A DNA stretch of 64,000 nt from Candidatus Gottesmanbacteria bacterium (GTDB lineage Bacteria > Patescibacteriota > Microgenomatia > UBA10105 > UBA927), in assembly GCA_016214885.1 (NCBI GenBank), contig JACRMP010000005.1:134725-198724 (forward strand), read 5' to 3'. The position numbers were made by a program, and so were the translations under genes. Below are positions 34,125-61,780 of the stretch, in pieces. Every line of letters begins with the position of its first letter. The stretch's first letter is position 1. The notes below the pieces were generated by a model that worked only from the letters and a program-made list of their open reading frames with translations, was not told the origin of the DNA and did not search any database.

Positions 34125-36173
34125 ATGTCAAGCGGAACGATGGGGCCGCCGTGCTATAGTAAAAGCGTGACCCACATACACCTTTTCTGGACCACATCGT
34201 TAAGCGCGGTGCTGTTCGCCGCCATTTTATTGGGAGATGCCCGCCAGTCAGTGGTTGATGTTTTTATGGCCGGCACGGTTATTGCGGGGTTTTTTGCTCT
34301 ATGGAAAACCGCCTCATTCCGCAGGATGCCAAAAGAGGCTGTGATGTTGTGGGGGGCCGTTATTGTTATGGCAACGCCGTTTTTTTGGCCCAATAACATA
34401 GGAGGGGCAATACAGGGGTATATCAGGTACCTTTTGGGATTCATGGTGTTTGGTTTGTTGTACTCGGTGGCAACAAGAGGTGCTTCATGGTTATTAGAGA
34501 GGGTTTTGTTGGTTGTTGGGGTTGCCGTATCTATATTTACCGTGTTATTTTTGTTTATCCCCCACCCGCCATGGCTTCCCCTTATGAATCTTCTTTATCC
34601 ATCATATGGGCACAATCACGCCGCGGATATTCTCCTGTTTGTGCTCCCGCTGGTTCTTTACACCAAAGAACTGAATGGTCGGGTGCGGACCGCTCTTTGG
34701 ATTGTAGTGCTTTGCGGTTTGGTTTTTTCATTTGCGCGAGGCGCGTGGGTTTTAGCGGCACTTTTTGGTGTGTGGGCGTTTTTGTTTTCCGGTATAAGGA
34801 GGCAAAGAAAAATTTTATTATCCGGTGTCGTTTTTGTGCTCGCCCTTGTATTCGTTGGCGCTTCTGCGACAAACAACTGGACGCGAAACGTACGCGGAAA
34901 GCTTGTAGATTCCCCCGCGATCCACAGGGTGATTAATAAGGGAAGTCCTTTAAGTGACCCGAGGCTTGAATATTGGACGCAGGCACTTAAGATGATTCGT
35001 GAACGCCCTTTGTTTGGAAGCGGGCCGGGCAGTTTTTATTATGGCTCTCGTCGGCTGCAATCACAGCCATCCTTATACTCATGGTTTGCCCATTCTTTTG
35101 TTTTACAGACCCTCGCTGAACAAGGAATTATCGGGGCGCTTCCTGTGCTTGTTTTGTTTGGGTTGGTTCTGTGGCGCGCTGTTTGCGTCATCCTGCGTCA
35201 CCCGCCGGAACACAGTCCGTTGGGGCGCCTGAGTGTCGGTCTTTTGCTGGTTGCCGCCTATTCATTTATTGAGTTTAATTTAAGTTTTGCTGTTGTGTGG
35301 GCGCTGTTTTGGGCCGTAGCGGGTTTGATTTTCGGCGCGGAAAAAATTTATGAAGAACACAAAACCAACAACGGCCGGCAATTATTAGCCGCCCTCCTAT
35401 TGCTCCTGGTGTTTTATGTGTTGTTTATCGGACAAAGTGCGGCGCTGGTGATGTTTCCGAAGCGCGCCGACATTGCTTTTTATCTGACGCCATTTGACGC
35501 AGTAACCGCGCGGTATTATCTCACCTCCGGTGTTGTAACCCCTCGTGGCATTACGATGGTTGAGTCACTTCATGGGGCAGACCCCGAAACGTTACAGGTT
35601 GTTGCTGATGCGTGGAGGAAGTCCGGGTTTATGGGTAAATCTCTTTATACAAGAGGACAGATCCTTATTGCGGACCCACTTAATGAAGACAACCACAAAG
35701 AATATTTGAGTCAACTTGTTGAGTCGGCGCGGTACGATGAAGCGGCGGCCTGGTTTAGCCGTTACCCTTCTTTATTTTTCCCCGCCGCCGTTGGTGGGCG
35801 CGCAGTTAATGTTCCGGCTTTATATATAAAGGATTATCCACAGGAATATCAAAAACTATTTGAAAGTAAGTATTCACATGAGGTGCGGTATTCCCGCTTT
35901 TATTACAACCTCGGTCTGTGGTATCTTTCGACCGAGCCTGAAAAAACACGCGATCTGTGGGAGCTGGCGTCGCTGCTGCAGCCAAAACTAAGCTTTCTAT
36001 GGTTGGAAAGATTTTTTTTGGAGAAGCAGGTTTTTACCGATGAGATTGCTGCAAAAAAAATTATTGAAGAGTGTCTGAATAATCCGTCGGCTGCGAAGCA
36101 CTGCGGCGGGGTGAGCATCGAGAACCAGGTATATTTACCGGGCCACTACAAAACAGAAATTAATGAAAAATAG
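34125..36173 (+). CDS. O-antigen-ligase-like (Wzy_C) polytopic membrane protein with extended C-terminal soluble domain
   Basis: At least ten TM helices. VFSFARGAWVLAALFGVWAF and IRERPLFGSGPGSFYY are typical of the WaaL/Wzy_C family. A roughly 250-aa helical C-terminal domain follows. Confidence 0.55.
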   Translation: MSSGTMGPPCYSKSVTHIHLFWTTSLSAVLFAAILLGDARQSVVDVFMAGTVIAGFFALWKTASFRRMPKEAVMLWGAVIVMATPFFWPNNIGGAIQGYIRYLLGFMVFGLLYSVATRGASWLLERVLLVVGVAVSIFTVLFLFIPHPPWLPLMNLLYPSYGHNHAADILLFVLPLVLYTKELNGRVRTALWIVVLCGLVFSFARGAWVLAALFGVWAFLFSGIRRQRKILLSGVVFVLALVFVGASATNNWTRNVRGKLVDSPAIHRVINKGSPLSDPRLEYWTQALKMIRERPLFGSGPGSFYYGSRRLQSQPSLYSWFAHSFVLQTLAEQGIIGALPVLVLFGLVLWRAVCVILRHPPEHSPLGRLSVGLLLVAAYSFIEFNLSFAVVWALFWAVAGLIFGAEKIYEEHKTNNGRQLLAALLLLLVFYVLFIGQSAALVMFPKRADIAFYLTPFDAVTARYYLTSGVVTPRGITMVESLHGADPETLQVVADAWRKSGFMGKSLYTRGQILIADPLNEDNHKEYLSQLVESARYDEAAAWFSRYPSLFFPAAVGGRAVNVPALYIKDYPQEYQKLFESKYSHEVRYSRFYYNLGLWYLSTEPEKTRDLWELASLLQPKLSFLWLERFFLEKQVFTDEIAAKKIIEECLNNPSAAKHCGGVSIENQVYLPGHYKTEINEK

Positions 36174-37218
36174 GCCGTTTTTAAACGCATTCAAGAACAG
36201 CAGAAGCATAGCGGTCATCGGTGTTAAAGGAATTCCCCCGGAGTTTCCCGGAACAAGCGGGGTCGAGTTCTATGTGTCACCACGCCTGCCCTTTCTGGCC
36301 GCAGCGGGCGCGAAAGTCGTTTGCTATGTGCGGAATTGGGCAACCCCGCGTCATATAAAAACTCACAATGAGGCCGTCCTTGTCCATCTTCCCAGTGTAT
36401 CCACGCTTTACTTTGATGCGGTGAGCCATTCGTTTCTTGCGACGGTTCACGCGTGTTTTTCGCAGGTAGACACGGTTTGGTATCAGGCTGCGGGACCTGC
36501 AATGTTTTCTTTTTTACCCAGGATCTTCGGTAAAAAAGTTGTGGTTACACTACACACCCTCGAGTGGAAGCGGAAAAAATGGGAAGGGGTTGGCGGGGCT
36601 ACACTTTTGTTTGCCGAAAGGGTTGCTGTTCACAGTGCGCACGAATTGTTAGTGGTATCTCGGGAGTTGGCGCGCTATTGCCAGAGTGTGTACAGCCGCG
36701 ACTGCTATATAGACACCCCGTTAGCACACCCTCCCCGCCGAGTACCGGCGAAAATTATTTCAGACAAATATGGCCTTCATAAAGACAGGTTTGTTTTATA
36801 TTTAGGAAGGTTTGTTCCCGAGAAGCGGATAGAGTGGCTTATAAGAGCTTTCCAAAAAACTTCCCGTGCCGGTATTCGGCTTGTGCTTGCCGGCGGCGCA
36901 CATCATATGGATAAGTATGCCGTCAGCCTCCGTAAGCTTGCCGGAAACGATGCGCGCATTTGCTTTGTGGGGTGGGTGTTTGGAAAAGAAAAAGAGGAGC
37001 TCCTTGCCAACTGCCTCCTTTTTGTCCTCCCTTCTTCGGTAGAAGGAAACCCCGTTGTGCTTTATGAGCTTCCCGATGACCGCAGGGCGCTTGTGTCTGA
37101 GGCGGTGGCGAGGTTGGTGACACACCGAGGCCGCCTCTCTACATTTCCTGAATCAGGTAAGTCGTTATTTGAGAAAAAACTGCGCGAGCTAATTAATGAT
37201 GATAGAATAAAGCATTAA
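36163..37218 (+). CDS. glycosyltransferase family 4 (DUF1972 N-terminus plus GT1 domain)
   Basis: SIAVIGVKGIPPEFPGTSGVEFYV is a DUF1972-type N-terminus. The C-terminus is a GT1 domain (LPSSVEGNPVVLYE). Confidence 0.65.
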   Translation: MKNRPFLNAFKNSRSIAVIGVKGIPPEFPGTSGVEFYVSPRLPFLAAAGAKVVCYVRNWATPRHIKTHNEAVLVHLPSVSTLYFDAVSHSFLATVHACFSQVDTVWYQAAGPAMFSFLPRIFGKKVVVTLHTLEWKRKKWEGVGGATLLFAERVAVHSAHELLVVSRELARYCQSVYSRDCYIDTPLAHPPRRVPAKIISDKYGLHKDRFVLYLGRFVPEKRIEWLIRAFQKTSRAGIRLVLAGGAHHMDKYAVSLRKLAGNDARICFVGWVFGKEKEELLANCLLFVLPSSVEGNPVVLYELPDDRRALVSEAVARLVTHRGRLSTFPESGKSLFEKKLRELINDDRIKH

Positions 37219-37415
37219 TGAAAATATTTACGCGTATCACCGCATATATACCCCGCATCATCACTGAGGTTTTTCTTACTCTCGCTTTTGTTTTGGGGGT
37301 GGGTGTTGTCTCCGTCGTGTTCCGTTTAGTTGGGCGCCGCATGCTTAAGTACAGCACAAAAAAATCCCTTTGGGAGGAGCCAACGGGAAGCAGCAGTCTC
37401 GCGAGAATGTATTAG
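37218..37415 (+). CDS. small membrane protein preceding the carbamoyltransferase
   Basis: 65 aa with one TM helix (VFLTLAFVLGVGVVSVVF). It is coupled on both sides: the ATGA overlap with the upstream glycosyltransferase and a 3-nt gap to the carbamoyltransferase. Confidence 0.3.
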   Translation: MKIFTRITAYIPRIITEVFLTLAFVLGVGVVSVVFRLVGRRMLKYSTKKSLWEEPTGSSSLARMY

Positions 37416-37418
37416 CGT

Positions 37419-39116
37419 ATGAACATACTGGGAATTTCCTGTTATTACCATGATAGCTCGGCGGTTCTGATTCAGGACGGCAAGATTGTTGCGGCTGTTG
37501 CAGAAGAACGCCTCAGCCGTAAAAAACACGACAACGATTTTCCTGAGCGGGCAATCAGATTTTGTTTTGATTGGGCACACACGGATGGGCGCGGGATTGA
37601 TGCAGTAGCATTTTACGAAAAACCCCTGGTTAAGTTTGAGCGCGTGCTCGCACAGCACATAGATGCTTTTCCTTTGGGAGCGAAAGCGTTTCGCGAAAAC
37701 ATCGGATCCTGGTTTTCCCGTAAGCTTAAAATTAAAGAAACGCTTCGGAAAAAGTTTGGTTATGAGGGAGAGGTTCTTTATATCCCTCACCACCTGTCCC
37801 ATGCCGCCAGCGCCTTTTATCTTTCCGGGTTTGATAAGGCCGCTGTGGTAACTATTGACGGTGTCGGCGAATGGGCAACAACAACAATGGGCATGGGAGA
37901 CGGAATCCGTGTAAATGTGGAGAGGGAGATACGATTCCCCCACTCTCTTGGACTCCTTTATAGCGCGGTCACTTCGTATTTGGGTTTTGAGGTAAACGAT
38001 GCAGAGTATAAGGTCATGGGGTACGCCGCCTACGGAAACCCCCAGACATACAGGGAGCAATTTTCCCAACTGATTACACTTCATAAGGACGGCAGCTTCT
38101 CGCTTGCCATGGATTATTTCACCTATGTGTGGTCGGACAGGATGTATAACAAAAAGCTTGAACAGCTTTTTAACCTCCCCACCAGACAAAAGGAGTCGGG
38201 CGTGCAGCAGGAATATGCGGACATTGCCGCAGGTCTTCAGCGCGTCCTGGAGGACTCGGTGGTGAATTTGTTGGTTGCGGTACACAAGAAGCATCCTGTG
38301 AACGCGCTGTGTTTAGCCGGGGGTGTAGCATTAAATTCGGTAATGAACGGAAAATTGCTAAAACGCACCCCGTTTAAGCAACTATATATCCCCCCTGATC
38401 CTGGCGACGGAGGGGGTGCCATGGGTGCGGCCATGTACGCGTATGTGCAAAAAGCAAAAAAATCCATATGCGGAGACTTTTTCCCCAACTTGGGACCCTC
38501 GTATCCTACGGAACAGATAATCGGCACACTGGAGAGCTTCGGATTAATTTATGAGGAGGCAGAGAGTGATGCGGCTCTTGTTGACGTTGTTTCCGGGTTT
38601 CTTGCCGAAGGAAAAGTGATCGGTTGGTTTCAGGGGCGCGTGGAATGGGGCCCCAGGGCGCTGGGGTTCAGGAGTATTCTGGCGAACGCAGGAAAAACAG
38701 AAATGAAGGATGTCATCAATGCAAAAATTAAACACAGGGAGCTTTTCCGGCCGTTTGCACCCGTTATTATGGATAAGTATGTGTATGATTATTTTTTGGC
38801 AGACAGCAGGCTGTCAGAATCGACAAAATACATGCTGATGGTTTACCCGTTTACACCCAAGGGAATTAAAAGGGTGCCTGCAACGGTTCATGTGGACGGA
38901 ACCGGCAGGCTTCAAGTGATAACCAGAAAAGACAATCCGTTATATTACGATCTAATCGACGCATTTAGAAAGAAAACAGGAACACCGGTTATCCTTAACA
39001 CCTCCTTTAACGTCCGGGGGGAGCCTATTGTGGCAAGCCCCAAAGATGCCGTAGAATGTTTCTTAAAGACAGATATAGACTATTTGGTTTTAGGAAAATA
39101 TATTATTAAAAAATAA
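37419..39116 (+). CDS. NodU/CmcH-family O-carbamoyltransferase
   Basis: MNILGISCYYHDSSAVLIQDGKIVAAVAEERLSRKKHD..., the canonical carbamoyltransferase N-terminus, and the C-terminal YrdC-like region. Confidence 0.85.
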   Translation: MNILGISCYYHDSSAVLIQDGKIVAAVAEERLSRKKHDNDFPERAIRFCFDWAHTDGRGIDAVAFYEKPLVKFERVLAQHIDAFPLGAKAFRENIGSWFSRKLKIKETLRKKFGYEGEVLYIPHHLSHAASAFYLSGFDKAAVVTIDGVGEWATTTMGMGDGIRVNVEREIRFPHSLGLLYSAVTSYLGFEVNDAEYKVMGYAAYGNPQTYREQFSQLITLHKDGSFSLAMDYFTYVWSDRMYNKKLEQLFNLPTRQKESGVQQEYADIAAGLQRVLEDSVVNLLVAVHKKHPVNALCLAGGVALNSVMNGKLLKRTPFKQLYIPPDPGDGGGAMGAAMYAYVQKAKKSICGDFFPNLGPSYPTEQIIGTLESFGLIYEEAESDAALVDVVSGFLAEGKVIGWFQGRVEWGPRALGFRSILANAGKTEMKDVINAKIKHRELFRPFAPVIMDKYVYDYFLADSRLSESTKYMLMVYPFTPKGIKRVPATVHVDGTGRLQVITRKDNPLYYDLIDAFRKKTGTPVILNTSFNVRGEPIVASPKDAVECFLKTDIDYLVLGKYIIKK

Positions 39117-39117
39117 T

Positions 39118-39261
39118 ATGTGGAAAGACTTGGTTCAGTTCATCTGGGAAAATAAAAAATGGTGGATGATTCCTCCGGTAATCATACTTATTCTCTTCGG
39201 TATTCTGATTTTTGTAACCACTGCCACCCCCGTGAGCCCGTTCATCTATATGCTGTTTTAA
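39118..39261 (+). CDS. SxtK/DUF5989-like 47-aa membrane mini-protein (below the ORF-track size cutoff)
   Basis: Hand-translated as MWKDLVQFIWENKKWWMIPPVIILILFGILIFVTTATPVSPFIYMLF. The pattern KKWW-hydrophobic helix-PFIY(T/M)LF is the family hallmark as I recall it. It starts 1 nt after the carbamoyltransferase stop. Confidence 0.45.
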   Translation: MWKDLVQFIWENKKWWMIPPVIILILFGILIFVTTATPVSPFIYMLF

Positions 39262-39324
39262 TTGTCAGTCTCCCCTTTTGTGTTTTTTGTCCGGCATAGT
39301 ACACTACGGAGGAATCTTTCCTGT

Positions 39325-39747
39325 ATGGGAGAAGTCCAGTTTTTAATGAATAATGCTCGTATGAAAATTCTCAGATTGCCGCAATTTCTTGACGATGCAA
39401 GACTTTTGTCGACACAGAACGCGTCGGTTATTCCTTTTTCAATCAGGCGGGTATTTATAATATGTGACGTTCAGGCCGACACCCTGCGGGGTAAGCACGC
39501 ACACAAAAAAACGAAACAGGCGATGTTTTGTATCCAGGGCTCTGTGCACGTCCGGTTAAGCGACGGGAAGAAAAAAAGAGTGTATCGGCTGACCGACCCC
39601 CGTCGGGGTATTTTTATTGACCGCCTCGTATGGTCGGAAATGTATAATTTCAGTTCCGATGCAATACTCATGGTTTTTGCCTCAGATTATTATAAAGAGG
39701 GTGATTATATACGTGATTATAAAAATTTTCTTAAATTAATAAAATGA
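39325..39747 (+). CDS. WxcM/FdtA-like cupin, dTDP-4-keto-6-deoxyhexose 3,4-isomerase
   Basis: RGKHAHKKTKQAMFCIQGSVHVRL...LVWSEMYNFSSDAILMVFASDYY matches the FdtA/WxcM cupin. The track ORF starts at a TTG (39262). A GGAGG sits 12 nt before the ATG at 39325; ATGs at 39346 and 39361 are alternatives. Confidence 0.55.
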   Translation: MGEVQFLMNNARMKILRLPQFLDDARLLSTQNASVIPFSIRRVFIICDVQADTLRGKHAHKKTKQAMFCIQGSVHVRLSDGKKKRVYRLTDPRRGIFIDRLVWSEMYNFSSDAILMVFASDYYKEGDYIRDYKNFLKLIK

Positions 39748-40853
39748 AACAACGTATAGTCATGAATGATTTTTCTCGGGAATACAGGGATCTTGGCAAG
39801 CCTCTCATAAAAAAACTGGATTCATTTTTAGCTGCTGGCCAATACATACTTGGTCCCAATGTAGCAGCTTTTGAACGCGGGTTTGCGCGACACCTCGGAT
39901 CAAAATACTGTGTCGGGGTTGGTAACGGCCTTGAAGCAATTCAGATTGCTCTCATGGGGCTTGGAGTTGGAAAGGGCGACGAGGTGATTACCGTGTCTAA
40001 TTCTGATGTTGCAACCGCCCTTGCGATTCTTTATGCCGGAGCTACTCCCGTATTTATCGATGTGGATGAGTATTATCATTTGGATCCTAAATTGCTTGAG
40101 CGGGCCATCACAAAGCGCACAAAAGCTATTTTACCGGTTCACTTGTTTGGTCAGGCTGCTGACATGTCTGCAATTTTAGATGTCGCAAAAAAACACAAGT
40201 TAATGATTGTAGAAGATGCCTGTCAGGCACACGGGGCAACATATAAGGGAAAATATGCCGGTACATTCGGAACAGCCGGATGTTTTAGTTTTTATCCCAC
40301 TAAAAATCTTGGTGCGGCTGGTGACGCAGGCGCAATAGTAACGGATAATAAAGCACTTTACGAAAAATGCCTGATGCTCCGGAACAGGGGGGCAAAAAAA
40401 AGATGTGTTCATGTGCTGCGGGGCTTGAATAGCCGGCTTGATGAACTGCAGGCGGTCATTCTTCGCCATAAGCTCCCCCGCTTGAGGGCGGCGAACAAAA
40501 GGAGGAGAGAGGTAGCGGCCAGGTATATTTCACTTCTTTCCGGTGTTGCCGGAGTCGGGTTACCAGGAGAGAGACAGGGTGCTCGGCACGTCTATCATCA
40601 GTTTGTAATCTCTGTACCCCATCGCGATAAACTGATGAAATATTTGTCTATGCACGGTGTGGATTCATTGGTTCATTATCCTGTTCCCATACATTGGCAG
40701 GAATCATTTTCAGGGTTCAGAAATACGCATCTTCCAAAAACAGAAAGGTACACGAAGGAGATGCTTTCTCTCCCTGTGCATCCGTATATGACGGAAGCAC
40801 AGGTCGACGCTGTAGCCGGTTTAGTTAAAAAATTCTTTTGTAATAAGAAATAA
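39744..40853 (+). CDS. DegT/DnrJ/EryC1-family PLP sugar aminotransferase
   Basis: ILGPNVAAFERGFARHLGSKYCVGVGNGLEAIQIAL, the PLP-lysine context FYPTKNLGAAGDAG, and its pairing with the FdtA-like gene. Confidence 0.85.
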   Translation: MKQRIVMNDFSREYRDLGKPLIKKLDSFLAAGQYILGPNVAAFERGFARHLGSKYCVGVGNGLEAIQIALMGLGVGKGDEVITVSNSDVATALAILYAGATPVFIDVDEYYHLDPKLLERAITKRTKAILPVHLFGQAADMSAILDVAKKHKLMIVEDACQAHGATYKGKYAGTFGTAGCFSFYPTKNLGAAGDAGAIVTDNKALYEKCLMLRNRGAKKRCVHVLRGLNSRLDELQAVILRHKLPRLRAANKRRREVAARYISLLSGVAGVGLPGERQGARHVYHQFVISVPHRDKLMKYLSMHGVDSLVHYPVPIHWQESFSGFRNTHLPKTERYTKEMLSLPVHPYMTEAQVDAVAGLVKKFFCNKK

Positions 40854-40867: not shown

Positions 40868-41584
40868 ATGTATAAGACCAGCATTTCAGTGTTTTTCCCC
40901 TGTTATAATGACGCCAAAAGCATAGGACGACTTGTATTAGACGCGCAAGAAATCCTTACCACCCTTGTAAGCGATTGGGAAATAATTGTGGTAAATGACG
41001 GATCTACCGACGAAAGCATGATGGTTTTGGAGAAGCTTCGTCTGACAGTTCCGCGGTTGAGAATTATAAACCACGTTAAAAATAAGGGGTATGGAGCAGC
41101 GCTAAGAAGTGGTTTTGCCGCAGCCCGCAAATCGCTTGTTTTTTATACTGACGGAGACGGTCAATACTCCGTGAAAGAGCTTGGTATTCTTCTTCCTCTT
41201 ATGACCGGCGAGATAGATTTTGTAAACGGGATAAAAATGAGCCGCAAGGATCCCACGTATCGGATCTTCCTTGGTAATTGGTACAGCCTGGTGGCCCGGT
41301 GGATGTTTTGGCTACCAATTTATGACGTGGACTGCGATTTTCGTCTGATCCGCCGCCGGGTTCTTAAAAAAATGTCACTTTTCAGCAGCAGCGGATCCAT
41401 TTGTATCGAACTGGTGAAAAAAGCAGAGTTGTCCGGTGCGCGATTCAGGCAGGTATCTGTGCATCACTACGAACGAAAATACGGATCCTCACATTTTTTC
41501 CGTATAGACCGGCTTTTTTATACATTATGTCAGGTAATTATTTTGTGGATTCAAATTTGGGTCAAGTATTTTTTCAAAAAATAG
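40868..41584 (+). CDS. GT2 polyprenyl-phosphate glycosyltransferase (GtrB/DPM1-like)
   Basis: SVFFPCYNDAKSI...EIIVVNDGSTDES...VKNKGYGAALRSG...TDGDGQYS, the GT-A DXD fold. Confidence 0.75.
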   Translation: MYKTSISVFFPCYNDAKSIGRLVLDAQEILTTLVSDWEIIVVNDGSTDESMMVLEKLRLTVPRLRIINHVKNKGYGAALRSGFAAARKSLVFYTDGDGQYSVKELGILLPLMTGEIDFVNGIKMSRKDPTYRIFLGNWYSLVARWMFWLPIYDVDCDFRLIRRRVLKKMSLFSSSGSICIELVKKAELSGARFRQVSVHHYERKYGSSHFFRIDRLFYTLCQVIILWIQIWVKYFFKK

Positions 41585-41654: not shown

Positions 41655-42698
41655 ATGCGTAGATTCATATACATAGTTTGTTTAGCCGCCGTTTCGTTAA
41701 CAGCCACAATAGCAGTATTAGAATTGAGCCTGAAAGCTATCAGGTACAAACCACGTGCTGTTTGGTGGCAATGGGTTACTAATCCCGACAATCAAAAATT
41801 TGTTCTTGATACCCGGAGAATTTATCGATTAAAAAAAGGGGTTATTGTGGATTTCGAGGAGAATACCCCCGTGCAGACGATTAACGCCGAAGGTTGGCGC
41901 GCCTCCCCCTGCGCGCAGGGGTCGGAAACCTGGTTATTTGTCGGCGATTCGTTTGTTTACGGCCACGGTGTGGATGATCAGCAAACATTCCCGGCGTATG
42001 CTTATAAAGCAATGATGGATCACGGGAAACCGGTGTGTACGGTAAACGCGGGTGTGCAGGGGTATTCCCTTGGTCCGTCATATGTTGCGTTTCGGGAAGC
42101 GCTTGTAAGGGTAAAACCCGACGTAGTAGTGTGGGGCATCCGTTCGGATGATTTTCTGGATTCGGCACAAAATGGTGTGATATCGGTGAATAAAGACGAT
42201 GTTATAGTTCGGGGCGCGTGGACAAGCGGCGTGTTTCTTCAGGGGGTATTAAATAAGACTGTTGGAAGAATATTCCCCCATAGCCTGCTATTAAATGCGC
42301 TCATGTACGTTTTGCAGGCAGACAGGACGGATAATCGGTATATAGCGGAGCAAATGCGCACGCTCCCCTTTTTCTTATCGCATATGCGAGCGCTTTCACA
42401 AAAGCATTTGTTTACGCTGTATTATGTTATTACGCCTTCTCAGTCCGTCGTTATTGATCCAACAAGGAGCGATAATCCCGAGGGCGCGGTGTATGCGCCA
42501 TTGCGGCAGGCGCTGCGGACAAACGGCGAACCGTTTTTGGACATGAACGCCGTTTTGTCGCCGGTGTATCTTACTCATCTTAAAAAAATTGTGGGTATAG
42601 AAAGCGATAAAATTTTTCAAACAGACGGGCATCTAACCGCAAGCGGCAACAAACTTATGGGAAAACTGTTTTATGATGCTACTTATGCCGGGAGGTAG
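41655..42698 (+). CDS. SGNH/GDSL-family hydrolase or acyltransferase, N-terminal TM
   Basis: LFVGDSFVYGHGVDD (GDS block) after a signal anchor. Paralogous to 42794..43843 and 58440..59645. Confidence 0.5.
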   Translation: MRRFIYIVCLAAVSLTATIAVLELSLKAIRYKPRAVWWQWVTNPDNQKFVLDTRRIYRLKKGVIVDFEENTPVQTINAEGWRASPCAQGSETWLFVGDSFVYGHGVDDQQTFPAYAYKAMMDHGKPVCTVNAGVQGYSLGPSYVAFREALVRVKPDVVVWGIRSDDFLDSAQNGVISVNKDDVIVRGAWTSGVFLQGVLNKTVGRIFPHSLLLNALMYVLQADRTDNRYIAEQMRTLPFFLSHMRALSQKHLFTLYYVITPSQSVVIDPTRSDNPEGAVYAPLRQALRTNGEPFLDMNAVLSPVYLTHLKKIVGIESDKIFQTDGHLTASGNKLMGKLFYDATYAGR

Positions 42699-54684: not shown

Positions 54685-55892
54685 GCGGTCACACCGGCCT
54701 CACGAATAAACTTTTTTAATTGTGTTATTGCGGTTAACGATCCGTGTGTTTGTTGTATGTAATTCATAATCTTCTTTTTTAAAAGCGTTTTTTGACCGGG
54801 CGGTAACCGGAGAAATAGTTGTATGGCGGTAGCAAGGCCTTTGTAATCGGGTTGCTTGGCCAGGAGCCCCGCAAAGTGCCGGAGGATTTCCTGCGATCCC
54901 CCAGTGGGGAAAGCAATAACCGGCGTTCCGACCGATAACGACTCCAGTGTTACCATGCCGAGCGTTTCCAGTTTTACCGAAGGCATGATGGTCGCATCCG
55001 CGGCCTTGTAAAGGCTCCACATATCATTCGGCGCCCTTTCCCCCATGAAGAAGGTGTGTATGTTGCCCGGCAAAGAAACACGGAGGAGATCCGAAAAATA
55101 ATACACGGCATTTGGATGTACAGGTCCGCAAAAAATAATAGCTATTTTTATATCCGCGGGTATAATCGACAACGCCCGCAATAGGATGTCTTGGCCTTTT
55201 CTTGGCTCAATTCTTGAGGGAACCACTAACAGAAATCTATGCGGATCAATGCCCAGTTGTTTTCTGGCTGCGCGTTTTTCATCTGCGGTTGTTTCGTGAT
55301 ACATGAACGGAACCGAGAGAAGATTTGCCTTGTGTTTGTGAAACAATCCATTGAGTTGTCGCCGGGCAAAGGTGCTAAAACAGCCCACCGTTGAGCGTTG
55401 TATAAGTATGTATTGCAGGAGCCAGTGCAGCCAATGGACGAAGGAGTGTTTTATTTTTCTCAACAAATTTATTTTTCCCTGAACATATGATTTTTTTTCC
55501 AGATACAGAGCTCCGTGATAAAAATAGGCATAAGGAATTCTCAGTGCGCTGCAATACAGATTTGCGGCGAAAGCGCTGTAAACAATATTCCCAATAACGC
55601 CCCCCAGTAAATATTCCTTGCGGATAGACCGGATCAACTGTATTGTCCGGTAGGCTATATAGAAAAAACGGCGCGGATGACCGATGTCGGGAATGCTATA
55701 CGTGATGATTTTTTTGGCATACGGAAACCATTCAGTATCCAATGTCTGTCCGGGGGAAATGCCAGTAAGAACGATAATGTCCGCTTTAAGGCTTGATTGT
55801 GCTGCTGAAAGAACCGCACGGTTCAGCGTGAATGCTCCACCCGTGAACAAATCGTCAAATATAACTAGGATTGCCCTGTTTTTCCGGTCCAT
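54681..55892 (-). CDS. glycosyltransferase family 4
   Basis: ADATIMPSVKLETLGMVTLESLSVGTPVIAFPTGGSQEIL. Confidence 0.7.
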   Translation of the reverse strand: MDRKNRAILVIFDDLFTGGAFTLNRAVLSAAQSSLKADIIVLTGISPGQTLDTEWFPYAKKIITYSIPDIGHPRRFFYIAYRTIQLIRSIRKEYLLGGVIGNIVYSAFAANLYCSALRIPYAYFYHGALYLEKKSYVQGKINLLRKIKHSFVHWLHWLLQYILIQRSTVGCFSTFARRQLNGLFHKHKANLLSVPFMYHETTADEKRAARKQLGIDPHRFLLVVPSRIEPRKGQDILLRALSIIPADIKIAIIFCGPVHPNAVYYFSDLLRVSLPGNIHTFFMGERAPNDMWSLYKAADATIMPSVKLETLGMVTLESLSVGTPVIAFPTGGSQEILRHFAGLLAKQPDYKGLATAIQLFLRLPPGQKTLLKKKIMNYIQQTHGSLTAITQLKKFIREAGVTA

Positions 55893-55901: not shown

Positions 55902-56795
55902 TTATTGCATGCGGTTGGTTAGGTAGGACAGGTATGACTGGTAAAATAATCGTCCGAATAATCCGAACGTATGGAAGTGTTCGTACGGCGTGTTGTCGTT
56001 ATAAATTGCCCTAGGCGTATAATTACATCCTTTACATATGTCGATTTGTGACCGGTTGCCTTTCCAGAGCTGATGGCGCGCCTCGTTGAATTTTTTAGAA
56101 AACCATACGGACAGCACATGGTGTTTTTTTACATTTCCCATCACTTGTTTCCCAAAGTAGTCGTCACAACACTGTACCGTATTCCCCTCCCAGTTTATGA
56201 CCATGGTAGAGCTTGGCCGGAAACATGGCTTGTTGAGAGGTTTTTTAGGGACAGTAAGGTGGGTGAGTAATCCACCACGATTGTCAAAGAATGCATTGTT
56301 TACCCGTACGGCAATCCGGCGTCTCCATGTGGGGTGATGTTTTTCCACCCATGCCAATACTTCGGCAACATTTGTGTTCACCTTGCCGTCATATTGGCTG
56401 ACATAGACAAGATCAACTCCTGCGCGGATGAGCGAGGTGAGGATATCTGTTTTCAAAAAATCGCCGTTGGTGTTGATTTTGACAAAGGTGTGGGGACACC
56501 GTTTTTTGAGCAGCGTTAAAAGTTTTGGCAGACGCTTGTCCAGTAGTGGCTCACCATACATATGAAGAGACACACGTCCGTCGTAGCCCATATCAGCCAG
56601 ATCGCCGACGATTTTTGTAAACACTTTATCGGGAAGAAAGCCCTTCCCTCTTCCGCGATAAATATTCGGACAAAACGAGCACCGGCGGTTACATATTGAG
56701 GTTGTTTCAATTTCTATGCCGGTGAATACCGGAAACCGTTTGTATTTGATCAGATTTCCCAGGTAAAAATAGAATAAGGTAATAAACTGTTCCAT
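55902..56795 (-). CDS. radical SAM enzyme with C-terminal Cys-rich (SPASM-like) region
   Basis: CNRRCSFC (CxxxCxxC), HMYGEPLL, and C-terminal CCDDYFG and CKGCNY. Confidence 0.6.
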   Translation of the reverse strand: MEQFITLFYFYLGNLIKYKRFPVFTGIEIETTSICNRRCSFCPNIYRGRGKGFLPDKVFTKIVGDLADMGYDGRVSLHMYGEPLLDKRLPKLLTLLKKRCPHTFVKINTNGDFLKTDILTSLIRAGVDLVYVSQYDGKVNTNVAEVLAWVEKHHPTWRRRIAVRVNNAFFDNRGGLLTHLTVPKKPLNKPCFRPSSTMVINWEGNTVQCCDDYFGKQVMGNVKKHHVLSVWFSKKFNEARHQLWKGNRSQIDICKGCNYTPRAIYNDNTPYEHFHTFGLFGRLFYQSYLSYLTNRMQ

Positions 56796-56803: not shown

Positions 56804-57442
56804 TTAAAAGCGTCTTATGATATGGCTAAGCATTGCGGCGTTGCTGTCTTTTTGCTCCACAAGAATAATATCCGCGGTTGTTTTTTTCTGTATGCTATTT
56901 TTTATTTTTTTATTATCCACCAGCACCACATCAGTATTGTTAAGCACGTCCTCGGTAGCGATTTGTGACTCCTGGAAGGGAAATTCAGGAATGTCAGATG
57001 AAATTTGAACTATGCATGCTTTTTCTGCAAAGATTCCCGGAAGAAATAGCCAATGAGGCCGTATGGTAGCGCCTGTTTCCCAAACCACCAACGGGCGCCC
57101 CTTAACAGATCCCTTAAGAATTATATCCGGATGAAATAACCGGACAACATACAGCCAGCAGATCAATAAAAATGTGTTGAGCTGGTGAACGTGCTGGTTC
57201 CGCTCGAATGGGATAAGTCCGAACGGATGAAAGATCATTACATTTTTCCTGGTAAGCAACAGAAGCTTAAAGCCAACGATAGCCCTCCGCAGGCTCAGGG
57301 CGTGTTTGTATGTGTAGATTGAGGTGCCCGTGATGAGGAGTATGTTGTGTTCTTTTTTGAGGAGGTGAATGTGTTTTGCCCACTTGGCAGGGTTTTGACA
57401 CGCGTCATCAGCAAGCAGAATAAGTGTGTTTTTTGATTTCAT
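56804..57442 (-). CDS. hypothetical protein
   Basis: 212-aa ORF that overlaps its neighbours by 4 nt, consistent with the operon. No motif recognised. Confidence 0.35.
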   Translation of the reverse strand: MKSKNTLILLADDACQNPAKWAKHIHLLKKEHNILLITGTSIYTYKHALSLRRAIVGFKLLLLTRKNVMIFHPFGLIPFERNQHVHQLNTFLLICWLYVVRLFHPDIILKGSVKGRPLVVWETGATIRPHWLFLPGIFAEKACIVQISSDIPEFPFQESQIATEDVLNNTDVVLVDNKKIKNSIQKKTTADIILVEQKDSNAAMLSHIIRRF

Positions 57443-58356
57443 GTATGGTTAAAACGGAACCCCCGTGTGTGAACAGCAAGCCGGATTGCGTCGAGTTGGA
57501 ATAATGCTTTGGCTCTCCAGCAATAATGGAGGCAGATAATATTCTGGCGTGCCCGTCGTATTGTATCAAATTGAATGACATATCGCTTTTTGGGAAGCGG
57601 GGTGCGCTCCCTTTTTGCAATCACGCTTCCGACGATGACTTCATCGGATCCGAATTGATTATCAAAGTATGTTGTTTTGAGAATTCCCAGAAGCCTGTTC
57701 ATTGTGGAGAGCTCGAAAAGTGATTTGTCAGGTATACACACCAGCCCGGTGTTAAATAGTGGATTTGCGCCGGGTGCGCTGCTATGGACGAGCAGCTGTC
57801 GGTATGAGTGGTATAAATCTAAATAGCATTCGTCATCGGTATGTTTACGGGTGCGTTCCCTGGGTTCGTATTCGAGGTGGAGCACCTTATTTGGATTGCT
57901 GAGCCATTGTGCTATTTCCGGCGATTTTTGGAAAAAAAGAATATCGGCATCATAAATAATAAACCGTTTAAACGGGCAAACAAGCTTCAGCAGAAGCTTC
58001 CATTTTATGACGGGCGCCTCAGGGGAATCCATAAACTTTTTGATATTCGGGTAGGTCTGCAGAATTGTTTTTGCCCGCCGTAATAGCTGTCCCCTCGTGA
58101 TGATGGTGATGGTAAAATGCCCGGCAAGGCGCTGTTTGTCCTCTGCGGTAAGTGTACCGTCATCAACAACATATAACGGGAGATTTTGGTTAATGGCAAA
58201 AAACAACGAATATACAGCATAGATATACATGGTTACATCCCTGTGACAAAGAAGCGATGCGACACCGGTTTTTCTTGACGGAGCTTTGGCGTCTAAGAAA
58301 ATCCGGGGAAGAGTCGAAAAAATCCCTTGTTTAATGCTATTTTTCAGTTGATACAT
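57439..58356 (-). CDS. putative GT-A-fold glycosyltransferase
   Basis: LYVVDDGT and FIIYDADILFF (DXD-like), consistent with a nucleotide-diphospho-sugar transferase fold. Confidence 0.4.
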   Translation of the reverse strand: MYQLKNSIKQGIFSTLPRIFLDAKAPSRKTGVASLLCHRDVTMYIYAVYSLFFAINQNLPLYVVDDGTLTAEDKQRLAGHFTITIITRGQLLRRAKTILQTYPNIKKFMDSPEAPVIKWKLLLKLVCPFKRFIIYDADILFFQKSPEIAQWLSNPNKVLHLEYEPRERTRKHTDDECYLDLYHSYRQLLVHSSAPGANPLFNTGLVCIPDKSLFELSTMNRLLGILKTTYFDNQFGSDEVIVGSVIAKRERTPLPKKRYVIQFDTIRRARQNIICLHYCWRAKALFQLDAIRLAVHTRGFRFNHT

Positions 58357-58439: not shown

Positions 58440-59645
58440 TTACTGTGCGTTTAACGCATCAATGATACGGGGGGTAATATACTCCGCAATCATTTTATTT
58501 CCCTCCGGTGATATATGGGCAAAATCAAGGTAAACAGGTTGATCTACATTTGAAAAGACGCCGCTTGCATCAACAAAGTCGGGAAGAGCCAATTCGGTGA
58601 CTTTTTTTGTAATTTCTTTGTATAAACCGGCCGATTCGGTTTTAGAATTTATTACTTCGGTTTCGTCGTCGGTAAGTTTTTTGGTTGCTATGGATGGCTG
58701 CCAAATAAACAGCGTCTTAAACCCGTAGATTTTACTCAGATTTCGCACCATGGCTATGTTTTCTGCGTATATACGTGTAACGTCATCAGGCAATGCTGCG
58801 GTGTTGTGAAATTTAATAAGCCTGTTGTTTTCCTCATTATTCCCTGTACGCAGGATGCGGAAGAACTTAATCGGGTAATCGATTACTTTAATTCTTGATG
58901 CAAGCGAACGCGCCGCTTGCGAAAGATATGAAAAATCGAGCAATGACTGATTGCGGTACGGTACATGGAATGAATAGATGTTTCCCAGTCTGGTACGTAT
59001 TATGTCTTCATACACTGTCTGATTACCAGGAGAATATGTATAAAGATAGCGGGAGTAAAGCTCATTTATCCCGTCATAAAAAACAACCATATCAGGAATA
59101 TTTCCCTGTTTGAGTTGTATGAGTAGGCTTGCTAGCTCCTGTGATGAGTTATAGGCGCTGACGCCAAAGTTAGTAATCCGGTGCACCGGCGCCTTGGTGT
59201 TTAATAATTTGGCAACATGTGACGGAACCGTTTCCCCGTCTGATACGTTCGTACCGAATAGCGTAGATCCGCCGAACATGAAAATTTTTATTTGCTGATG
59301 AGAGATTGTAGCAGGGTTTCCTGTCGTTTCCCGTATACCTAAATCATTAATTGTAATGTGCGGGGTGTTGAGTGGTTTAGGGGTAAAGCTTAATAATGGA
59401 TGGTACTGCGCCTGTATTTTTTCGCTTTCGGTAAGCCACCATTTATTACTGTCTTTTGCATAAAACCAATCATTAGTCATTAGCCCCATTTTTTCTTTGT
59501 ATTCGTACACGCGCCAAAAAACATACCGGGAGAATGATATTGTCTGCAAAATCATCTCCAGAAAAAGTAATCCGGCAATGATTTTTGTTGCGCGCAGGCT
59601 CCGGGAAGTATTTTTTATCGGCAGTGAGCCGGGAGTGTTTTTCAT
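58440..59645 (-). CDS. SGNH/GDSL-family hydrolase or acyltransferase, N-terminal TM
   Basis: IKIFMFGGSTLFGTNVSDGETVPSHVAKLL and C-terminal block DFAHISPEGNKMIAEYI. Confidence 0.5.
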   Translation of the reverse strand: MKNTPGSLPIKNTSRSLRATKIIAGLLFLEMILQTISFSRYVFWRVYEYKEKMGLMTNDWFYAKDSNKWWLTESEKIQAQYHPLLSFTPKPLNTPHITINDLGIRETTGNPATISHQQIKIFMFGGSTLFGTNVSDGETVPSHVAKLLNTKAPVHRITNFGVSAYNSSQELASLLIQLKQGNIPDMVVFYDGINELYSRYLYTYSPGNQTVYEDIIRTRLGNIYSFHVPYRNQSLLDFSYLSQAARSLASRIKVIDYPIKFFRILRTGNNEENNRLIKFHNTAALPDDVTRIYAENIAMVRNLSKIYGFKTLFIWQPSIATKKLTDDETEVINSKTESAGLYKEITKKVTELALPDFVDASGVFSNVDQPVYLDFAHISPEGNKMIAEYITPRIIDALNAQ

Positions 59646-60343
59646 AGGCTGCTGCGTTTTTTTCCGTTATACCGTCCTTTTTCCAGTTCTATAACCCGGT
59701 CGCAGTTCTGCCGGACAAATTCCATCCAGTGCGACACAAGGATAAATGTCTTGTGTTGGCTGATAAGCTTTTGGAGGGCGCGTTGTGATTTGCGTTTAAA
59801 TTTTGCGTCACCTACCCCAAGGCTTTCATCGAGTATTAAAATATCCGGATTGGAGTGGAGGGCAATCGAAAATCCAAGCCGCAGCTTCATGCCAAAAGAA
59901 TAGGTAAACAGCGGCACATCGATAAACTGTCCTATATCTGCAAACGCAATAATCGCCGGCAATGCGCGCTCTATCTGCCGTTTAGACATCCCAAGTAACA
60001 TGCCGTTAAGGTACGCATTTTGCAGTCCAGTAAGATCAGGGTGAAACCCTGCTTCCAGATCAATGAGTGATACCGTTTTTCCGTTACGCACCACCGTGCC
60101 GGTTGTGGGATGGGTAATTCCGGCAATTATTTTTAACAAAGTTGTCTTCCCCGCTCCGTTTGGTCCAACAATCCCTACGCGTTCGCCTTTCCGGATAGTC
60201 AGATTGATATCTCGCAGCGCCCAGAAAATTTCGTTTCGGCCGCGGGTCAGTTTTTCGATGAGCGTGGGCTTATCGTGATGTATTTCATACCGCTTACTTA
60301 CATTCGTAAGCTGGATGGCAATTTCAGGATTTATCTTTTTCAT
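59642..60343 (-). CDS. ABC transporter ATP-binding protein (Wzt/TagH-like polysaccharide exporter)
   Basis: Walker A GIVGPNGAGKTTLLKIIAG; signature FSFGMKLRLGFSIAL; Walker B ILILDE. Confidence 0.85.
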   Translation of the reverse strand: MKKINPEIAIQLTNVSKRYEIHHDKPTLIEKLTRGRNEIFWALRDINLTIRKGERVGIVGPNGAGKTTLLKIIAGITHPTTGTVVRNGKTVSLIDLEAGFHPDLTGLQNAYLNGMLLGMSKRQIERALPAIIAFADIGQFIDVPLFTYSFGMKLRLGFSIALHSNPDILILDESLGVGDAKFKRKSQRALQKLISQHKTFILVSHWMEFVRQNCDRVIELEKGRYNGKKRSSL

Positions 60344-61110
60344 AGCCAGTCGTCAAACAGTTTTGATTCAGATTGGAATACCCAGATACCGATAATGAGG
60401 GTGGCTATGGCAATGGTGCCGTTGCATCCTATCATGGCAAGACCAGGAGCGGGGTAGTTGATGAAGGCATTTTGAAAAAATTGAACTACTGAAGTCATGG
60501 GGTTTAACCGCCAGATAAAAAGTAAAGCCGGAGGCACCGAATAGATGGAATAAACGATTGGCGTGAGGTAGAACCATACGATAAGACCTGCCTGGGTAAA
60601 AAACGTAATATCCCGGTACCGCACGTTGAGTGCCGCCGTAAGCAGGCTGGCTCCCGAAGTAAAGATGATGAGCAGGATAAATCCTAAAATGAATGAGCCC
60701 ACCCGTTCCATCGAAAACATTTGATAATAGAGGGTAAACGGCAGGATGAGTGCAAATGAAAGCAATAGGTTTATCGCGTTTGAAAGTACTATGGACAACG
60801 GAATTATTGCGTGCGGAAATTTGGATTTTTTTATAAGGGAGCGCTCGTTAACGATGGACGATGAGCCTTTGGCAAGGGAAAGCGAGAAAAAATTCCAGGT
60901 CAGCAGTCCGGTAAATAAGTACAAGTTATAGTGGGGTATCGGTTCTTTGATGAAAAGGGGGAAAATAAATCCTATAACTATCATTTGAATGAGAGGGTTA
61001 ATGAATACCCATAAGAATCCAAAAAGGGTGTGTTTGTACCGCGTGGTTAACTCTTTGTGGGTCATGCTGATAAGCAGTTCCCAAAAATGGTGGAGCGCGT
61101 AGCGTTTCAT
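60340..61110 (-). CDS. ABC-2-type permease (Wzm/TagG-like)
   Basis: 256 aa with six TM helices. Its start overlaps the ATPase gene by 4 nt. Confidence 0.75.
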   Translation of the reverse strand: MKRYALHHFWELLISMTHKELTTRYKHTLFGFLWVFINPLIQMIVIGFIFPLFIKEPIPHYNLYLFTGLLTWNFFSLSLAKGSSSIVNERSLIKKSKFPHAIIPLSIVLSNAINLLLSFALILPFTLYYQMFSMERVGSFILGFILLIIFTSGASLLTAALNVRYRDITFFTQAGLIVWFYLTPIVYSIYSVPPALLFIWRLNPMTSVVQFFQNAFINYPAPGLAMIGCNGTIAIATLIIGIWVFQSESKLFDDWL

Positions 61111-61780
61111 GCACCGTATTATACGATATGCTGCACGATTAGGTTATACTGGTGTATTATCGGGTACATATATGATCTCGGTGTTTTATCACTTGACCGT
61201 CATGGTCATTTTTTTGGTATCCCTTCCGCTGCAGGTGTTGATTGCCATACTCATTATGATGATGAGCGGGCTTCCCATTGTCTTCCGGCAGAAGCGCACC
61301 GGCAAGAACGGCGCACCTTTTGTTATGTATAAATTCCGTACGATGGTGAATGGCGCGGAAAAGAAGAAACCGGCTTATGCACACCTTAATGAATCACAGG
61401 GTCCTGCATTTAAGATTCGGAAAGATCCCCGTTTTACGGGAATCGGCGCTTTTTTGAGCCACACCGGGCTTGATGAACTTCCCCAGCTATTTAATGTATT
61501 GCGGGGCGATATGGCCCTTATTGGTCCCCGCCCCCTCCCTATCGCTGAGGCTCAAAAATTAAAACCATGGATGAGGGTGCGTGAACAGATACTCCCCGGC
61601 ATCATCTCCCCCGCCATATTAACCGGTAAATATCATGAGAACTTTGATTCGTGGATGCGCAGTGATGTTTCCTACGTCAAAAAGAAAAACGCCATAGGCG
61701 ACGTACGGCTGTTTTTGCAGAGTTTTTCATTTCTGGCAAGACTGTTTGTCCGGAGTATGGGCATGAAGCAGAGCACTTGA
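61109..61780 (+). CDS. initiating sugar-phosphate transferase (Bac_transf / WbaP-PglC-like)
   Basis: MSGLPIVFRQKRTGKNGAPFVMYKFRTM and DELPQLFNVLRGDMALIGPRP. Confidence 0.85.
   Translation: MHRIIRYAARLGYTGVLSGTYMISVFYHLTVMVIFLVSLPLQVLIAILIMMMSGLPIVFRQKRTGKNGAPFVMYKFRTMVNGAEKKKPAYAHLNESQGPAFKIRKDPRFTGIGAFLSHTGLDELPQLFNVLRGDMALIGPRPLPIAEAQKLKPWMRVREQILPGIISPAILTGKYHENFDSWMRSDVSYVKKKNAIGDVRLFLQSFSFLARLFVRSMGMKQST

Follow-up and report, generated by a model that had tools for sequence, protein, structure and literature searches.

We find that a 64,000-nucleotide stretch of DNA from Candidatus Gottesmanbacteria bacterium (contig JACRMP010000005.1, positions 134,725 to 198,724; hereafter the window), a member of the Candidate Phyla Radiation (CPR), carries a large cell-envelope glycan locus next to dnaA. 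Judged by comparison with related loci, it is made of a conserved core linked to a Wzx flippase and a variable arm linked to an ATP-binding cassette (ABC) exporter. Our preferred, still tentative reading, which we place a little short of an even chance, is that three lipid-carrier routes cooperate here on one composite surface glycoconjugate. A list of open reading frames (ORFs) together with family searches delimits 27 closely packed genes at 34125-61780, about 27.7 kb, laid out as two convergent strings and one divergent gene. The plus string spans 34125-50437, the minus string runs from 61110 down to 50438, and neighbouring genes in both either overlap or lie a short gap apart. The first of two Wzy_C genes opens the locus at 34125, 52 bp from dnaA, whereas an original prediction made from the sequence alone had placed the start at 36163; dnaA/oriC flanks the locus on one side and a block of surface-protein and mur genes on the other. 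Family calls were made with Pfam and NCBIfam, and folds by structure prediction (AF2) followed by Foldseek against the PDB; most locus proteins score above the Pfam gathering threshold (GA) for their main family, and NCBIfam adds detail. The predicted minimum of seven glycosyltransferases agrees with our tally of five family 4 enzymes (GT4; genes at 36163, 45678, 46889, 53461 and 54681), one GT2, one GT8-like enzyme of the GT-A fold and one GT-C enzyme, to which two Wzy_C-type enzymes are added. Every gene class named by the original prediction occurs where it was placed, and the interpretation built on them is supported in part.

The cluster is one genuine, vertically inherited glycan locus. 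An independently assembled contig from another sample (SRR12113407_110505, 38.9 kb) runs from dnaN to past the phosphotransferase gene and holds the entire locus at 99.7% identity; identity to the window is 99.7-99.9% across the independent assemblies of six sequencing runs, which include five further contigs, and contigs from four other samples agree. A 72-kb contig of a related species (L017/L018) is colinear with it from the first Wzy_C gene to the phosphotransferase gene, with proteins about 73-82% identical. These contigs rule out an assembly chimera of two contigs, a weakness that the original prediction had itself raised and that we regard as next to impossible. The fall in G+C from about 49% to about 44% between roughly 38 and 61 kb of the window could raise the same suspicion; glycan loci are usually lower in G+C. 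The other doubt it had voiced, that the Wzx- and Wzy-like proteins might be unrelated membrane proteins, is answered by Pfam, which identifies them as true family members. GenBank entries MBI5018951-965, from a Candidatus Gottesmanbacteria metagenome-assembled genome (MAG), are 100% identical to several locus proteins and carry generic annotation only; the literature searched yielded no publication on glycan loci of this lineage. A promoter and terminator scan was uninformative, and because promoter-like sites occur only at chance level, the operon structure is taken from gene overlaps. Rfam and tRNA scans of the window gave no matches.

Eight related loci were compared with the window (L010/L016, L011-L015 and L017/L018). 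All of them hold the same core, a 407-residue GT4, a 340-residue radical S-adenosylmethionine (SAM) enzyme and Wzx, facing a 515-residue Wzy_C protein, a DUF4330 protein and two further GT4s. The operon ends with the exporter pair Wzm/Wzt in the window as well as in L018, L012 and L013, the last of which also carries a divergent phosphotransferase. Gene content between Wzt and the 407-residue GT4 varies by lineage and includes epimerases, other glycosyltransferases, an adenosine phosphosulfate (APS) kinase and a PqqD-like gene. Since L014 holds the Wzx core with no ABC exporter, the core can stand alone. In two loci of more distant relatives the ABC arm is replaced, in L014 (1-9973) by sulfate-activation genes (ATP sulfurylase/APS kinase and TauE) and in L015 (1-8460) by sulfotransferases, a TagF-like glycerophosphotransferase and a B12-radical SAM enzyme, and these genes suggest that the core glycan also exists in sulfated or teichoic-acid-like forms. 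The MAG CAYUZE01 (L010/L016, CAYUZE010000001.1) keeps the whole left arm, beginning directly at dnaA, and its locus shares gene order with the window, the proteins being 47-92% identical. The record's title, 'uncultured Gammaproteobacteria', looks wrong given this synteny, and we do not adopt it, since the identical NCBI proteins bear the name Candidatus Gottesmanbacteria and the gene content is CPR-like. In the related species represented by L017/L018, the contig continues past the phosphotransferase with a 688-residue protein, then murL and murD.

Within the core, the flippase is a 419-residue MOP-family Wzx-type protein (50438..51697, minus strand; Polysacc_synt 51.4 bits against a GA of 28.2, Polysacc_synt_3 32.5 bits) with about 12 or more hydrophobic segments, and its stop codon abuts that of the 515-residue Wzy_C gene. 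Among the relatives it is 32-57% identical to the window protein, and DUF4330 is 51-70% identical. Two core GT4s lie upstream of DUF4330 on the plus strand, at 45678..46892 (Glycos_transf_1 100.8 bits; 50-53% identical in all relatives) and 46889..48064 (121.2 bits; 38-63%). The third is the 407-residue, TuaH-like enzyme at 53461..54684 on the minus strand (Glyco_trans_1_4 36.3 bits; TuaH 73.6 bits, below cutoff), which is 34-39% identical in all relatives. Together with the neighbouring class I SAM methyltransferase (52781..53455, minus strand; Methyltransf_24 47.3 bits, Methyltransf_3 23.8 bits) it sits between variable arm and core. The original prediction called this methyltransferase an O-methyltransferase, of which the class stands and the 'O-' specificity does not, the enzyme being known at class level. 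The 340-residue radical SAM/SPASM enzyme (51744..52766, minus strand; Radical_SAM 66.5 bits) is the best-conserved gene of the locus, 62-93% identical across relatives, and its nearest solved relative is BlsE, a cytosylglucuronate (nucleoside-sugar) decarboxylase (1.2e-10). In close relatives it is 84-93% identical while neighbouring genes reach only 35-74%; it has hundreds of homologues at E<=1e-20, and some of their source records name other CPR phyla and Binatia.

The first of the two Wzy_C proteins, of 682 residues (34125..36173, plus strand; Wzy_C 72.1 bits, GA 31.7; start set at 34140 by gene callers), is encoded directly after dnaA, an adjacency kept in L016 and L017, and has an extra C-terminal soluble domain of about 230 residues. 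The second, of 515 residues (48890..50437, plus strand; 63.3 bits, same GA), has a conserved cytoplasmic N-terminal extension of about 50 residues and a tiny close family, nine cluster representatives at E<=1e-30 among 1.84 billion. Neither protein by itself, nor the family profile of the 515-residue protein or of DUF4330, gave a useful match when searched against the sequences of solved structures. Only a joint profile of both Wzy_C families reached solved relatives, the best being an O-oligosaccharyltransferase (O-OTase; 9rmk, E 2.5e-10), as well as the ligase WaaL (7tpg, E 1.8e-4). Invariant R280/H323 of the longer protein and R362/H417 of the shorter align to Arg-265/His-313 of WaaL (7TPG), and both sequences carry the motif H[NS]x9GxxG. 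Polymerases of the Wzy_C clan have Asp or Glu at the position of the ligase His (PMC10920833). The alignment thus points to two ligases or transferases rather than a polymerase and ligase pair, and no polymerase is demonstrable. Of the predicted two O-antigen-ligase/Wzy-like proteins, therefore, the family membership stands for both, and the 'Wzx/Wzy-type' label is not established, given a ligase/O-OTase signature and no Wzz-like co-polymerase. Pfam gives no significant Wzz match in the locus; the sole trace lies in a 47-residue DUF5989 micro-protein (E 0.015, 16 bits, GA 25.5). The DUF4330 protein (48071..48886, plus strand; PF14221, 41.9 bits) is invariably encoded directly upstream of the 515-residue enzyme. 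It has one N-terminal helix and a strongly conserved, beta-rich outside domain, unlike the two-helix coiled-coil layout of Wzz, and its family alignment shows 71% mean column identity and the motif VRIKGSPGNWWWVTPRPPDWLA.

The variable arm occupies the minus strand up to the exporter. Its GT4 of 403 residues (54681..55892; Glycos_transf_1 94.1 bits) has no counterpart in L010-L016, and L017/L018 has a 404-residue GT4 at the same position. Next come a second radical SAM/SPASM enzyme of 297 residues (55902..56795; SPASM 48.9, Radical_SAM 49.2 bits), so that both predicted radical SAM enzymes are confirmed and both belong to the SPASM type, and a 212-residue protein with no Pfam or NCBIfam match (56804..57442), which bears a faint GT-B-type resemblance to the TuaH-like GT4 in that enzyme's N-terminal half (pairwise E 0.001 over 66 residues). 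The 305-residue protein that follows (57439..58356) has no Pfam match either; its AF2 model (pLDDT 85.2) matches LARGE1, UGGT, XXYLT1, glycogenin and LgtC in Foldseek at probability 1.0, and an invariant D136-x-D138 is present, upholding the earlier GT-A-like call and defining it as GT8-like. The exporter comprises a Wzt/TagH-type ATPase of 233 residues (59642..60343; ABC_tran 83 bits; in NCBIfam TagH 178-184 and galactan Wzt 175 bits, all below cutoffs) and a Wzm-type ABC-2 permease (60340..61110; ABC2_membrane 60.4, galactan Wzm 60.7, KpsM 29 bits), adjacent and overlapping by 4 nt. At 233 residues Wzt consists of the ATPase domain only and lacks the C-terminal glycan-binding domain that, paired with a chain terminator, marks one subclass of the ABC pathway. 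From wzm to wzx the minus string counts 11 co-directional genes with four 4-nt overlaps and gaps of at most 83 nt, and because they form one such string, wzm, wzt and wzx very probably share one transcript. The predicted coexistence of a Wzx-like flippase with a Wzm/Wzt exporter is thereby borne out. Divergent from wzm lies the only phosphoglycosyl transferase of the locus, a small monotopic polyprenyl-phosphate sugar-1-phosphate transferase (61109..61780, plus strand; Bac_transf 162.9, EPS_sugtrans 181 bits) that fits the initiating enzyme of the original prediction. It is called as 202 residues on independent contigs, and probably has this length, with a start near 61172.

The left, plus-strand part of the locus encodes modifying enzymes. 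After a 351-residue GT4 (36163..37218; Glycos_transf_1 58.4 bits, with a weak Cps2T-like match of 51.9 bits against a cutoff of 500) comes a NodU/CmcH-type carbamoyltransferase of 565 residues (37419..39116; Carbam_trans_N 281.6, Carbam_trans_C 227.8 bits; NodU 146 bits, below cutoff), as the O-carbamoyltransferase call had it. Two conserved one-helix micro-genes, overlooked in the original prediction, flank it: one for a 65-residue protein (37218..37415, recognised from its translation and called at the same position and length in L016 and L017) and one for a 47-residue DUF5989 protein (39118..39261; PF19451, 63.4 bits, GA 27; also kept in L016 and L017). We take this trio to resemble the SxtI/SxtJ/SxtK-type trio found beside carbamoyltransferases elsewhere. 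There follow an FdtA-type 3,4-ketoisomerase cupin with an RGKHAHK motif (39262..39747; FdtA 142.4 bits), which probably starts some 25-35 codons further downstream, its L010 homologue aligning from residue 27, and, overlapping it by 4 nt, a DegT/DnrJ/EryC1 sugar aminotransferase (39744..40853; PF01041, 380.6 bits; PseC, ArnB and other NCBIfam matches below cutoffs). The predicted pathway to a dTDP-3-amino-3,6-dideoxyhexose is thus represented by both its ketoisomerase cupin and its pyridoxal phosphate-dependent aminotransferase.

These two genes are followed by a 238-residue GT2 of the polyprenyl-phosphate sugar synthase type (40868..41584; GT2 81.6 bits), whose best NCBIfam matches are ArnC, PgfS, PpgS, AglJ and Dol-P-hexose transferase, all below equivalog cutoffs, and whose best solved relatives are ArnC (1.6e-17, residues 5-222), GtrB and DPMS, the match spanning its whole length. 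It lacks the C-terminal membrane helices of polyprenyl-phosphate sugar synthases; streptococcal GacI is likewise small and helix-free. Two membrane-anchored SGNH/GDSL-type proteins with N-terminal helices come next, of 347 residues (41655..42698; Lipase_GDSL_2 23.9 bits, below GA) and 349 residues (42794..43843; 33.4 bits, GA 32.9), and a third, of 401 residues, lies in the minus string (58440..59645; 25.7 bits, below GA). To call the three paralogs, as the original prediction did, is generous: three SGNH-like proteins are indeed present, of which one passes the Pfam threshold, and they are mutually distant (27-30% identity over about 90 residues). The 588-residue protein at 43877..45643 on the plus strand has no Pfam match. 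Its AF2 model, built with 22 homologues (pLDDT 86.7, pTM 0.88), has about 11 helices and a C-terminal extracytoplasmic domain, the top 22 Foldseek matches in the PDB are all GT-C enzymes (STT3, AglB, PglB, DPY19, AftD, ArnT, AftA), and D54 in the first outside loop is invariant, so that the fold upholds the GT-C call. Sequence searches of solved structures with this protein alone, or with the 305-residue protein alone, gave no useful match.

The GT2 gene has FdtA/DegT on one side and the SGNH/GT-C genes on the other, a block kept in L016 and L017. A GT2 of about 239-265 residues beside a polytopic protein of about 580 residues recurs in L010/L016, L014, L015 and L017; in L011-L013 the GT-C position holds PMT_2-type or unannotated polytopic proteins of 491-546 residues with no adjoining small GT2. 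By analogy with Arn, Gtr and Gac systems, FdtA, DegT, the ArnC-like GT2 and the GT-C form an extracytoplasmic decoration module, a third lipid-carrier route. The sugar loaded by the GT2 is plausibly 3-amino-3,6-dideoxyhexose, whose amino group may stay free or be altered by another enzyme. The decoration enzymes of the original prediction are thus present, but it overlooked that some of them form a transport route of their own, from polyprenyl-phosphate-sugar synthase to GT-C.

How might these parts work together? Wzy_C-type enzymes use donors linked to undecaprenyl pyrophosphate (Und-PP), and GT-C enzymes use donors linked to undecaprenyl phosphate (Und-P) (PMC10920833, PMC9574508). Given that the two families differ in donor type, at least three lipid-linked routes appear to operate in the locus. 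In the conserved route, an Und-PP-linked oligosaccharide would be built by the conserved GT4s, with modification by the conserved radical SAM enzyme, and flipped by Wzx, after which the 515-residue WaaL/PglL-like enzyme and DUF4330 would use it outside the membrane. In the variable route, the small phosphoglycosyl transferase would start a polymer that the variable-arm enzymes (GT4, GT8-like enzyme and radical SAM enzyme) would complete on the cytoplasmic side and Wzm/Wzt would export. In the decoration route, FdtA and DegT would make dTDP-3-amino-3,6-dideoxyhexose, the ArnC-like GT2 would load the sugar on polyprenyl phosphate, and outside the membrane the 588-residue GT-C would pass it on to the glycan, while the anchored SGNH proteins would act there on ester groups. 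The 682-residue WaaL/PglL-like enzyme would make the other joining step, onto the final acceptor, be it protein, lipid or glycan. Gene families, folds, catalytic residues, gene order and the pattern of conservation are directly shown by the data; we infer the assignment of glycosyltransferases to routes, which for the ABC route follows from gene position and conservation, as well as the joining of products and the identity of the acceptor.

We favour a composite conjugate because the genes share an operon, there is a single phosphotransferase, and the gac, cwps and epa loci set a precedent: in the models for S. pyogenes gac (GacIJKL), L. lactis Wps and E. faecalis Epa, different routes contribute to one composite polymer (PMC9574508, PMC7188991). 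Several observations weigh against it. The sequence itself holds no sign of a linkage between the route products, and in L014 the core gives way to a transposase and unrelated genes with no ABC exporter reached. The call of ligase versus polymerase rests on two aligned residues and family-level knowledge. No GtrA-type flippase, GacJ-like activator or LytR_cpsA_psr (LCP) transferase was found in the locus, where the only flippase is Wzx with the Wzy_C core as its fixed partner. Pfam scans of the main ORFs of the window (about 45 ORFs of 120 residues or longer) detected neither RmlA/RmlB, the precursor enzymes on which FdtA depends, nor an N-acyl or formyl transferase for the amino sugar. Finally, the lack of an outer membrane is assumed from the lineage; the gene content of the window, with a Gram-positive-type type IV secretion set, undecaprenyl-diphosphate synthase and the mevalonate pathway, fits a CPR monoderm, and for a lineage taken to be monoderm lipopolysaccharide (LPS) is not the expected acceptor.

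A strong rival, to which we give a smaller though still substantial chance, is that two independent conjugates are made: the Wzx-flipped oligosaccharide would be transferred en bloc by the 515-residue enzyme, for example PglL-type onto surface proteins, the ABC-exported polymer would be attached by the 682-residue enzyme, and clustering would reflect co-regulation and shared precursors. Two exporters and two ligase-like enzymes then pair one-to-one, an O-OTase is the solved structure closest to the Wzy_C profile, and the protein encoded after the locus (704 residues, with a membrane helix and a Pro/Thr-rich linker) could be the acceptor; the constant core next to a varying ABC arm, and the lone core of L014, are what separable modules would show. 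However, a single phosphoglycosyl transferase would have to serve two Und-PP-linked products, wzm, wzt and wzx belong to a single string of overlapping genes, and known loci with such a mix of genes yield a single composite polymer (PMC9574508, PMC7188991). It is improbable that the locus is a classical Wzx/Wzy system, the model implicit in the original prediction, with the 515-residue protein as polymerase, DUF4330 as its chain-length partner, the 682-residue protein as ligase and the ABC polymer separate or additional. This would suit the fixed convergent pair of wzx and the Wzy_C gene, accompanied in all relatives by three conserved GT4 genes, the single-pass membrane protein encoded directly upstream of the Wzy_C gene everywhere, and a Pfam Wzy_C family that includes some polymerases. 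But the 515-residue protein keeps the ligase-type His in place of the Asp/Glu of clan polymerases, its conservation among relatives (53-74%, versus 32-57% for Wzx) is unusually high for a polymerase, DUF4330 does not have the Wzz architecture, and a Pfam Wzz match is wanting.

Less probable again, and in our view quite unlikely, is a single ABC-dependent glycan on which Wzx acts as a GacK-like flippase for the polyprenyl-phosphate amino sugar of the GT-C, completing a four-component decoration system, and both Wzy_C proteins are ligases for different acceptors. Such a scheme would explain why no GtrA-type flippase is seen in the locus, and its GacI/GacK/GacL-like set is complete, with a helix-free ArnC-like GT2, a Wzx-family flippase and a GT-C (PMC9574508). 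Yet Wzx keeps its place beside the 515-residue enzyme and the GT4 core, whereas in relatives the GT2/GT-C pair shifts position, gives way to other proteins (PMT_2-type GT-C proteins stand at its position in L011-L013) or lies apart from that core; L014 has the Wzx core with no adjoining ABC exporter, and a GacJ-like activator is absent from the locus. A further reading, to which we assign a low probability, is an LPS-like 'core plus O-antigen' conjugate in Candidatus Gottesmanbacteria and its relatives, which are expected to lack lipid A and an outer membrane; here the 515-residue enzyme, as a lineage-specific WaaL/PglL-like protein, and DUF4330 would install the conserved Wzx-flipped unit on a protein or lipid anchor, the second ligase-like enzyme would add the species-variable, ABC-exported polymer, and the GT-C would add a polyprenyl-phosphate-linked, possibly free-amine (cationic) 3-amino-6-deoxyhexose. 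In that case these episymbiont-type cells would present the conjugate as their main variable surface.

To our knowledge, almost nothing is known of the surface glycans of CPR/Patescibacteria, whose cells are thought to be host-attached and to be targeted by phages via their surfaces. An oriC-adjacent, conserved locus with a fixed core and a species-variable arm is thus a candidate for the main surface antigen of the lineage, and two unusual WaaL/PglL-like enzymes, one constantly paired with DUF4330, are offered for glyco-engineering. Elsewhere in the window, the replication origin region covers 31341-34124, with dnaN and dnaA on the minus strand, a sign change of GC skew at about 32-33 kb, DnaA-box-like 9-mers clustered in the dnaA-dnaN spacer (32551, 32596, 32617) and two more (34085, 34095) in the 52 bp that separate dnaA from the glycan locus. 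At 5022-12265 a gene for undecaprenyl-diphosphate synthase (UppS) comes first and the entire mevalonate pathway after it (decarboxylase, two GHMP kinases, thiolase, a 3-hydroxy-3-methylglutaryl-coenzyme A (HMG-CoA) synthase-like protein and HMG-CoA reductase); together they supply the polyprenyl carrier that the glycan locus needs. A Gram-positive-type type IV secretion gene set occupies 21972-30375 and 4251-4664, with a TrwB/TraG-like coupling protein, a PrgI-family protein, a CD1110-family VirB4, a 726-residue M23 peptidase and a type IV secretion pilin, and near it are large proteins with no Pfam match, of 1205 residues (17710-21327) and 541 residues (16001-17626). About 2.3 kb at 13706-16001 contain no ORF of at least 120 residues and no Rfam or tRNA match. 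After the phosphotransferase, the gene of the approximately 704-residue protein (61957-64000, running off the window end; no Pfam match) is conserved as 688 residues in L018, ahead of murL/murD; the protein may lie at the cell surface and could be glycosylated. A contig of the same population (L008) departs from the window beyond 63095.

Among known systems, the decoration genes are like Arn (ArnB-ArnC-ArnT) and Gtr in having a DegT aminotransferase, an ArnC-like GT2 and a GT-C as neighbours, which implies a polyprenyl-phosphate-amino-sugar donor used outside the membrane. They differ in that the sugar would be a 6-deoxyhexose made via FdtA instead of 4-amino-4-deoxy-arabinose, there is no ArnA/ArnD formyl cycle and no ArnE/F or GtrA flippase, the GT2 has no C-terminal helices and the acceptor would not be lipid A. 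The Wzy_C proteins share with WaaL and PglL (CAZy GT121; 7TPG, 9RMK) the domain and the aligned invariant Arg and His, but the sequence similarity is remote, and the C-terminal domain of the 682-residue protein, the N-terminal extension of the 515-residue protein and the obligate DUF4330 neighbour set them apart, as does an acceptor not expected to be lipid A-core. Surface-layer slg clusters of Geobacillus, Aneurinibacillus and Paenibacillus also combine, in monoderms, Wzm/Wzt, the Wzy_C-type O-OTase WsaB and Fdt genes that serve to make a 3-amino-3,6-dideoxyhexose; neither a Wzx flippase nor a GT-C module is known from them, and the FdtC acetyltransferase found there is absent here.

The closest known systems are the gac (GacD/E exporter with GacI/J/K/L), cwps (Rgp exporter with WpsA-J) and epa loci. 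As here, a GT-A polyprenyl-phosphate-sugar synthase, a Wzx-family flippase and GT-C and/or Wzy-like membrane transferases are encoded in one locus together with an ABC exporter whose polymer is finished on the cytoplasmic side, and the locus has conserved and variable parts; in the cocci the products are joined outside the membrane (PMC9574508, PMC7188991). The polarity is inverted, however, the Wzx-linked part being conserved here and the ABC-linked part variable, and the two WaaL/PglL-like enzymes, the DUF4330 partner, the two radical SAM enzymes and the CPR host are further differences. Because no rml genes, rhamnosyltransferases or LCP transferase were found, the locus works like rhamnose-rich cell wall polysaccharide loci of Gram-positive cocci but is not a member of their group: no Rml families and no recognisable rhamnosyltransferase are seen among the locus proteins, LytR_cpsA_psr has no match in the Pfam scans of the main ORFs and may be encoded elsewhere in the genome, and the GacJ/WpsB-like activator of gac and cwps was not found. 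The original prediction regarded two export systems in one locus as unusual; this does not hold, since in gac, cwps and epa alike an ABC exporter is encoded with a Wzx flippase, a GacI-like GT2 and GT-C or Wzy-like enzymes (PMC9574508, PMC7188991). The arrangement is thus already familiar from streptococcal, lactococcal and enterococcal wall polysaccharides, interesting and not unprecedented, and introduces no new principle. Rather, the locus extends the composite logic of ABC exporter plus Wzx flippase plus GT-C well beyond the Firmicutes.

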